A DNA stretch of 64,000 bases, taken from assembly GCF_003790525.1 (NCBI RefSeq), contig NZ_CP033635.1. One strand, written 5' to 3'. The translations under genes and the position numbers were made by a program. The notes beneath the pieces are model-generated. The model was not told where the DNA came from, did not search any database, and was given only the letters and a program-made list of their open reading frames with translations. This document shows positions 40,543 through 41,098 of the stretch, piece after piece (position 1 is the first letter of the stretch; each line of letters begins with the position of its first letter). The DNA is from Escherichia coli. GTDB taxonomy: Bacteria > Pseudomonadota > Gammaproteobacteria > Enterobacterales > Enterobacteriaceae.

Positions 40543-40856
40543 TCTTTATACCTATTTATCATGCCAACTATCAGCATATATCAATCTAGCCAATTAGACA
40601 AAAATCAAACAAAATCAGACAAATAACGCGATAAATTATTTTAACTGTAGCAATTGAGCGATGATGTATTTATACACCGGATGAACTTTCACTTATCTTC
40701 ACAGTGACAACCCCGGCACCAGACGTTGCGCAAACAGCGAAGTTTTTGCGTAACCTTTTCCCTGGAACGTTAAATCTTTGATAACAATTTATTGTCTAAC
40801 AAGTTGTATATTTTTTGAAACGCTGTTTTTGTTTTCCTTTTGGATTAATTTCAGCG

Positions 40857-40893
40857 TATAATGCGCGCCAATTGACTCTTGAATGGTTTCAGC
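40857..40893 (+). promoter_or_regulatory. putative pykF promoter -10 (TATAAT 40857..40862) and Cra-like site (TGAATGGTTTCAGC 40880..40893)
   Basis: consensus -10 hexamer about 240 bp upstream of pykF ATG followed by a partial palindrome resembling the Cra (FruR) operator; TSS not determinable. Confidence 0.4.
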
Positions 40894-41098
40894 ACTTTGG
40901 ACTGTAGAACTCAACGACTCAAAAACAGGCACTCACGTTGGGCTGAGACACAAGCACACATTCCTCTGCACGCTTTTTCGATGTCACCTATCCTTAGAGC
41001 GAGGCACCACCACTTTCGTAATACCGGATTCGCTTTCCGGCAGTGCGCCCAGAAAGCAAGTTTCTCCCATCCTTCTCAACTTAAAGACTAAGACTGTC

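Follow-up and report, generated by a model that had tools for sequence, protein, structure and literature searches.

In enterobacteria, several short open reading frames (ORFs) located in messenger leaders are known whose translation controls the gene downstream, such as those of tnaC-tnaA, mgtL-mgtA, and toiL-topAI. Here we describe the leader of pykF, the gene for pyruvate kinase I, and the ORF ynhH contained in it, in a stretch of 64,000 nucleotides of Escherichia coli DNA (hereafter the window; RefSeq assembly GCF_003790525.1, contig NZ_CP033635.1). As in those three systems, the long pykF leader holds a short ORF that is more conserved in position than in sequence, and its translation would be expected to affect both the access of Rho and initiation at the downstream gene. 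Unlike them, ynhH showed neither a stalling or sensing motif nor alternative terminator/antiterminator structures, and its 64 codons span the entire leader and end at the main start, an arrangement more like the translational coupling of two cistrons.

The pykF upstream region itself has been described before. The promoter predicted by Bledig et al. (1996) (pykFp in RegulonDB) is listed in Table 1 of PMC2759082 as TGTTTTCCTTTTGGATTAATTTCAGCGTATAATGCGCGC, with a transcription start site (TSS) at -231 and FruR (Cra) as regulator, and the same paper cites a FruR site at pykF. This promoter is the same object as the one found in the window, and its operator follows the -10, as it should in a glycolytic gene repressed by Cra; the fixed -10, spacing, and box across the order are the sole addition made here. 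In cra mutants pykF is derepressed, and the gene is repressed by Cra in vivo (PMC8085971). In Salmonella, the small RNA (sRNA) AdiZ pairs with the 5' untranslated region (UTR) of pykF, for which a C-22G compensatory mutant gives support; chimeras with ArcZ also map to this UTR (bioRxiv 10.1101/2025.06.06.658255). The peptide encoded by ynhH belongs to a YnhH-like Pfam family, PF23642, built on peptide similarity and with no function assigned to it. For pykF, the promoter, the Cra site, and the annotation of ynhH were therefore already known, and an earlier note on this DNA, prepared from the sequence alone, made an ordinary finding, a new description of a textbook locus. The signature that emerges for ynhH from the comparison below is a modest new lead. 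The reading that we regard as probable is that the interval corresponds to the regulatory region already known for pykF, that its distal leader carries ynhH, and that translation of this leader would serve pykF expression. It is a more tentative proposal, and one that may well fail, that ynhH is an ancient, position-conserved leader ORF of pykF and not primarily a protein gene, with the output of the distal promoter depending on leader translation.

Conservation of the ynhH frame

In the window, ynhH opens with a TTG located 3 nt past the Cra box, at +28 of the distal mRNA, and 7 nt separate the end of its stop codon from the pykF ATG; its frame is +1 relative to pykF (Table 1). The deduced protein is identical to that of K-12 and scored 167.6 bits against PF23642 (cut-off 27). 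The earlier note had called the space upstream of pykF a 556-bp non-coding interval: its length was correct by direct reading, and the description as non-coding was not, given the ynhH entries in RefSeq, UniProt, and Pfam.

The pykF locus was compared in 80 species of Enterobacterales. The leader ORF was defined by a rule fixed in advance, as the one opened by the first ATG, GTG, or TTG within 0–9 nt after the Cra box. An ORF of 60–85 codons reaching at least to -20 was found in this way in 71 of 79 species. Start and open frame were thus conserved in position regardless of the peptide, and the ORF stopped within re-initiation distance of the pykF start. The start codon was always in the spanning frame, being TTG in 56 species, GTG in nine (the Pectobacterium/Dickeya/Brenneria group and some Pantoea), and ATG in six (Erwinia, Izhakiella, and one Pantoea). 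The Enterobacter cloacae group carried a 1-nt deletion between the Cra box and the TTG with the ORF intact, and in four species a TGA immediately preceded the TTG. Indels internal to the ORF were of +3, +9, +12, or -3 nt, or formed a +1/-1 pair. Late net frameshifts were found in Klebsiella, Cedecea, and others, in which the new frame continued to a stop at -17, at -14, or in an ATGA overlap. Overall, the first base of the stop codon lay at -18 to +11, most commonly at -10 and with many ATGA overlaps, a distribution of limited information, as the end points are in part fixed by stop triplets conserved in the pykF initiation region. The ORF was not universal: Proteus (loci L071 and L077), Budvicia (L074 and L081), and some Photorhabdus/Xenorhabdus (L065, L072, L073, and L080) kept the -10 and the Cra box and had lost the leader-spanning ORF; they are natural controls for its function.

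Shuffling of the ORF bodies gave a null expectation of about 0.16 per species for a named spanning frame, and the combined null was about 1e-14, 1e-8, or 1e-3 when species were grouped in single-linkage clusters at 70, 62, or 58% identity, respectively. The open frame could be looked upon as a passive by-product of overlapping DNA and RNA elements and of a stop-poor composition, its translation having no role. This would agree with the shuffled leaders, 38% of which kept at least one frame open and 16% the named one, with the second frame that is open by chance in E. coli, with the frozen blocks inherited by all species, which make up about 80 of about 195 nt, and with the value of only about 1e-3 under the most conservative clustering. 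However, the frame kept in those 71 of 79 species is the one defined by the start, in leaders whose variable segments are near random identity between families; the start codon has been swapped for other start codons and not lost; frameshifting indels are compensated or lie upstream of the start; and the least-stopped frame accumulated 12 stops over all species, against 154 and 310 in the other two. On balance we consider a passive origin of the frame unlikely.

A second alternative is that YnhH is a functional small protein whose amino acid sequence is under selection, its place in the pykF leader being simple operon organization. It has a curated Pfam family, many E. coli and Shigella genomes encode the identical protein, and a motif, ...AH(I/F)PLHAF.MSPIL..., is common to Enterobacteriaceae. 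The ratio of nonsynonymous to synonymous substitution rates (dN/dS) also points in this direction, with 0.2–0.7 in the ynhH frame and about 1 in the other two frames, the values for pykF in the same genome pairs being 0.005–0.13. The shared motif, however, is the translated block of the inner promoter (see below). Codons 16, 20–33, and 58–64 were frozen at all three positions, and they coincide with this block and with the pykF initiation region. Diversity at the first, second, and third codon positions was 0.232, 0.227, and 0.285 (20 ungapped Enterobacteriaceae sequences), the third-position excess not being significant (p = 0.07). C-termini change frame in Klebsiella, Cedecea, Kosakonia, and others, and the peptide is rich in His and Arg, as is typical of off-frame translation. 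It matched no other family, and NCBIfam contained no model for YnhH or for the 72-aa peptide of the pykF frame discussed below. Outside Enterobacteriaceae the peptide became unrecognizable and the ORF was still there. PF23642 gave 62.6 bits in Klebsiella; Cedecea, Pantoea, and Erwinia fell below the threshold, matching only in the inner-promoter segment, and the upstream ORFs (uORFs) of Serratia, Rahnella, Yersinia, Hafnia, Edwardsiella, and Pectobacterium gave no match. Since the positional homologs of Yersiniaceae, Hafniaceae, and Pectobacteriaceae do not match the family, the conserved entity is wider than PF23642. The dN/dS pattern fits a translated frame whose product is little constrained. 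It is therefore improbable that YnhH is maintained as a small protein, and judging from these comparisons its peptide would be selected weakly, if at all.

These alignments showed that the start and the openness of the ORF are kept while the peptide is not. Since the ORF persists where the peptide is unrecognizable, we infer that leader translation, and not the peptide, may be what is selected, either for coupling to pykF or for shielding from Rho.

The earlier note had pointed to another frame, that of pykF, as open for 72 codons upstream of the ATG at 41099, and had taken it as a sign of an unusually constrained leader. The count was exact by direct reading, and the interpretation was not sustained. 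Runs of at least 72 codons occurred in 3.1% of dinucleotide shuffles of the whole spacer and in 8.2% of those of the leader alone, so that the openness lies within chance (P = 0.03–0.08), and it is lineage-specific and not conserved. Among 51 tabulated sequences, the run reached 72 codons only in E. coli and Escherichia albertii; elsewhere it ranged from 2 to 59 codons and was of 22 codons in about one third of the 49 other species. The conserved open frame is that of ynhH and not that of pykF, and two frames are open in E. coli because the five other upstream stop triplets all fall in the third frame. The openness of the pykF frame is a coincidence of the Escherichia lineage.

It is very improbable that the pykF frame itself matters, whether as a constrained in-frame leader or as an N-terminally extended PykF starting from the ATG at 40883. 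In E. coli and E. albertii an ATG located at position +14 of the distal transcript does open a run of 72 codons, but the frame is shut after 2–59 codons in the other species examined, its chance probability is the one given above, that ATG has no Shine-Dalgarno sequence, and a 542-aa form is not annotated; the comparative data already contradict this explanation. The ATG (40883–40885, in the context TGA-ATG-G) opens the pykF frame in Escherichia only, and it is conserved because it is part of the Cra box. A 542-aa extended PykF in Escherichia is formally possible.

Promoters, Cra operator, and leader elements

The TATAAT reported by the earlier note was confirmed and corresponds to the -10 of the predicted distal pykF promoter. 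The sequence TGTTTTCCTTTTGGATTAATTTCAGCGTATAATGCGCGC given in PMC2759082 is exactly that of the window, which places position -231 at 40868. The start itself was located by homology with Salmonella SL1344, for which differential RNA sequencing (dRNA-seq) identified two primary pykF starts, P732 and P733 (Ramachandran et al., 2012; PMC3293720, Additional file 2). P732 is labeled "Sigma 70 (-10)" and starts after ...CAGCGTATAATGCGCGCCA, and P733 is labeled "Sigma 38" and starts after ...CACCTATCCTTAGAGCG (PMC3293720). Since both Salmonella promoter sequences are identical in the window, the two starts were placed at 40870 and 41001, the former being the base homologous to the P732 start, 7 nt after the same TATAAT. 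The UTRs listed for Salmonella (283 and 152 nt) differ by 131 nt, the same distance that separates 41001 from 40870; they are listed as 283/152 instead of 229/98 because the annotated pykF start is too far downstream. In Additional file 2 of PMC3293720, SL1344 pykF is a 1,359-nt gene whose start lies 54 nt, or 18 codons, past the conserved ATG. Salmonella Typhimurium pykF thus has the same promoter sequences as E. coli and the same 131-nt distance between its two starts; the two differ in that the E. coli distal start, although predicted, was not seen in one study by rapid amplification of cDNA 5' ends (5'RACE), and in that ends at -34 and -80 are reported for E. coli only. The -35 of the distal promoter is poor (TTCCTT-like), and a consensus promoter scan did not call this promoter; its -10 is perfect and conserved. 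A consensus terminator scan of the plus strand gave only one terminator-like match (40724–40739), weak and at chance level.

The Cra-like half-palindrome that the earlier note placed downstream of the -10, TGAATGGTTTCAGC, was present as described, and it is the single exact match to TGAANNNTTTCAGC within the 64-kb window. Asymmetric half-site matches are typical of Cra sites, and TTGAATG|GTTTCAGC matched eight of eight positions in the right half and four of eight in the left half of the imperfect palindrome GCTGAAAC|GTTTCAGC, which we take to be the consensus of Ramseier et al. With the start located by Salmonella homology, the box lies at +11 to +24 of the distal transcript, a position compatible with repression. 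It had no or one substitution in 79 of 81 Enterobacterales loci, and the -10, the box, and the 17-bp gap between them were essentially fixed from Escherichia to Dickeya and Yersinia. By motif, position, and conservation, the box at 40880–40893 qualifies as the Cra operator of the distal promoter. The Cra control of pyruvate kinase proposed in the earlier note is borne out by this position and conservation, by the published FruR site, and by the derepression in cra mutants. A 5' end less than 50 bp from the ATG, at -34, has been reported, which in the earlier note counted against its reading when joined to lack of Cra binding; Cra control and the Salmonella start uphold the distal promoter. The earlier note was right about the promoter and about Cra, both of which had been published before. 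In a chromatin immunoprecipitation-exonuclease (ChIP-exo) paper on Cra, pykF was absent from the text. Elsewhere in the window, a near-palindrome, TCTGAAACTGTTCAGC, at 35715–35730 has one mismatch to the Cra-type pattern whichever strand is read, and it sits at the junction of two minus-strand ORFs (34963–35748 and 35745–36464).

The inner promoter lies in a near-invariant block within ynhH (Table 1). Its start at 41001 agrees with the -97 start of "pykFP4-P5," obtained in E. coli by 5'RACE and in vitro transcription (PMC2759082). Between this start and pykF the leader can form a hairpin that is supported by compensatory pairs in Enterobacteriaceae; RNAalifold on the MAFFT alignment recovered only its core because of indels. 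In Serratia, Yersinia, Hafnia, and Erwinia, the place of this hairpin relative to the ATG is taken by hairpins whose sequences are unrelated (3' end at about -45). The leader hairpin had a median free energy of -10.2 kcal/mol vs. -6.8 kcal/mol in shuffles, and its 3' end fell at -47 to -40 in 70% of species vs. 24% of shuffles. It is not an intrinsic terminator because no U-run follows directly. The whole leader folded less well than shuffles (z = +1.7), with no stable global structure, and on these grounds a riboswitch or attenuator was discarded. Rfam 15 covariance models gave no match in 40000–41600 on either strand at E ≤ 1. The leader is C-rich and G-poor, with a GC skew of -0.11 to -0.31 throughout 40860–41139. 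The pykF initiation region is near-invariant and reads AUCCAUCACAACUU in other families; the AACUUAAAG within it resembles what we take to be the "epsilon" enhancer of phage T7 gene 10, UUAACUUUA.

A possible role for leader translation

These elements suggest how the leader could work. The distal sigma70 promoter, with its start near 40870, would give an mRNA with a 229-nt leader, and Cra bound to its operator would block this promoter at low glycolytic flux. The inner promoter (CTATCCT, start at 41001) would give a 98-nt leader and, since it lies downstream of the Cra operator, it presumably escapes Cra. On the distal mRNA, the TTG situated 3 nt past the operator would open ynhH, and ribosomes would cross the whole leader, including the inner promoter sequence and the hairpin, to finish at a UAA that ends 7 nt before the Shine-Dalgarno-poor pykF start. 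Translation of ynhH might then act by two routes. In the first, ribosomes would be delivered to, or re-initiate at, the pykF AUG and would melt the hairpin; in the second, they would cover a C-rich, unstructured, rut-like (Rho utilization-like) leader against Rho or RNase E. The inner promoter would yield an isoform with an untranslated leader, open to sRNA control. In the available portion of the AdiZ/ArcZ study the region is treated as a 5' UTR and ynhH is not discussed; the pairing site around C-22 described there lies in the conserved block 41069–41098, and the same nucleotides are the last codons of ynhH.

A variant of this proposal is that leader translation is selected only as a Rho shield of a long C-rich leader, with no hand-over of ribosomes to pykF. 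The negative GC skew along 40860–41139, a leader less structured than its shuffles, and the presence of the ORF on the long distal transcript only, and not on the 98-nt one, are what such a shield would lead one to expect. It would also tolerate stops located tens of nucleotides earlier, yet none was found before -18 and many ATGA overlaps were, an argument that is only partly informative. We consider shielding as the sole function rather unlikely. As no species ends the ORF before -18, hand-over is tentatively favored as a contributor.

Several observations weigh against a role of leader translation in pykF expression. In glucose-grown E. coli JM101, 5'RACE failed to reveal the distal start at -231, and the 5' ends found in that study were at -34, -80, and -97, the first two being perhaps processing products according to its authors (PMC2759082). 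The ynhH TTG lacks a Shine-Dalgarno sequence. Coupling cannot be obligatory because the inner-promoter mRNA, which has no ynhH start, must be translated alone. The null values per species are by no means small, being 0.16 for the named frame and 0.38 when any frame counts, and the strength of the ORF statistic depends on the assumption of independence because the species are related. Some peptide-level constraint is possible, since dN/dS is lower in the ynhH frame than in the other two. The literature searched yielded no profiling or reporter data and no other direct evidence that ynhH is translated, and neither the origin of the ynhH annotation nor, in the incomplete searchable literature, a paper linking pykF with a uORF was found. 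In the same incomplete literature, no discussion of ynhH beyond listing was found, one E. coli paper listing it within a deletion; pykF and ynhH are unmentioned in the main text of a PIRT-seq paper and of a Ribo-RET/apidaecin preprint.

ynhH is a named, uncharacterized small ORF that is kept open from the Cra operator to the pykF start even in lineages in which its peptide can no longer be recognized. Should pykF output indeed be set by leader translation, the control of this flux-setting enzyme would gain a translational layer, with consequences for how glycolytic flux control is modeled and how mutations and engineering upstream of pykF are read. ynhH would then also be a clean test case for distinguishing "small protein" from "regulatory uORF" among the ORFs revealed by ribosome profiling.

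Locus context and minor features

TABLE 1. Features of the pykF upstream region in the window.
Feature	Position	Strand	Remarks
fumD (ydhZ)	40333..40542	-	69-aa ORF; NCBIfam NF007630, fumarate hydratase FumD, 153 bits; RefSeq annotation
6-3-6 inverted repeat, KdgR-box-like	40816..40830		TGAAAC-GCT-GTTTTT; about -54 to -40 of the distal promoter, just upstream of the -35 region
-10 hexamer of the predicted distal sigma70 promoter (Bledig et al., pykFp)	40857..40862	+	TATAAT; TATAAT or TATACT in all aligned species
Distal transcription start	40870	+	229-nt leader; by homology to a Salmonella SL1344 dRNA-seq primary TSS
Cra (FruR) operator (motif, conservation)	40880..40893		TGAATGGTTTCAGC; FruR site cited in PMC2759082
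Stop-free stretch in the pykF frame	40883..41098	+	72 codons; bounded by TGA 40880–40882, followed by ATG 40883, both inside the Cra-like box
ynhH	40897..41091	+	64 codons; TTG start, TAA stop; RefSeq WP_240806354.1, UniProt YNHH_ECOLI, Pfam PF23642
Near-invariant block with the middle (inner) promoter	40954..41001	+	-10 CTATCCT (sigmaS/sigma70-type) at 40988–40994; TSS G 41001; 98-nt leader
RNA hairpin	41032..41057	+	GCUUUCCGG-CAGUGCG-CCCAGAAAGC; compensatory pairs in Enterobacteriaceae (RNAalifold)
pykF translation-initiation region	41069..41098	+	ATCCTTCTCAACTTAAAGACTAAGACTGTC; near-invariant, no canonical Shine-Dalgarno; holds the ynhH stop and the sRNA target zone
pykF, pyruvate kinase I	41099..42511	+	ORF; RefSeq annotation

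The spacer (40543..41098) extends from the end of fumD, on the minus strand, to the pykF ATG. Used as a query, its 556 bp were 100% identical to the sequence of strain SMS-3-5 and were found in 5,425 of 5,426 complete E. coli genomes. In comparison with a K-12 derivative, this strain had no differences over 40857–41098, the 242 bp that run from the -10 up to the ATG, and all eight differences in the spacer lay within the fumD-proximal 314 bp (40543–40856); pykF itself had nine.

The earlier note was also right that the region is shared with a divergent fumD in this genome, although the two genes are adjacent in some genera only. In the upstream flanks of loci L004–L083, fumD was the divergent neighbor of pykF only in Escherichia, Klebsiella oxytoca, Kluyvera, Pseudocitrobacter, Pluralibacter, Superficieibacter, and one Enterobacter, and it was not its neighbor in Salmonella, Citrobacter, and the E. 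cloacae group. Since fumD neighbors pykF in only a subset of genera, the control module of pykF is independent of it.

Upstream of the distal promoter, the inverted repeat of Table 1 was conserved across Enterobacteriaceae as TGAAAC-N3-GTTT(T/C)CA. The sequence TGAAACGCTGTTTTT at 40816–40830 has one mismatch to TGAAAC-N3-GTTTCA, which we take to be the KdgR consensus; it is the single match in the window, and the pattern is not rarer than expected by chance. A predicted membership of pykF in the KdgR regulon is attributed to Rodionov et al. (2004) in PMC6127512.

Finally, a second copy of a pykF leader was found on the 74-kb E. coli plasmid pB19374_2 (NZ_CP142917.1). This leader is only 86% identical to that of the window and is not E. 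coli-like. The fragment (positions 4001–4916) carries an annotated 64-aa ynhH-like ORF and a pykF truncated by IS26, with TEM-1 adjoining, and it is a captured chromosomal fragment.

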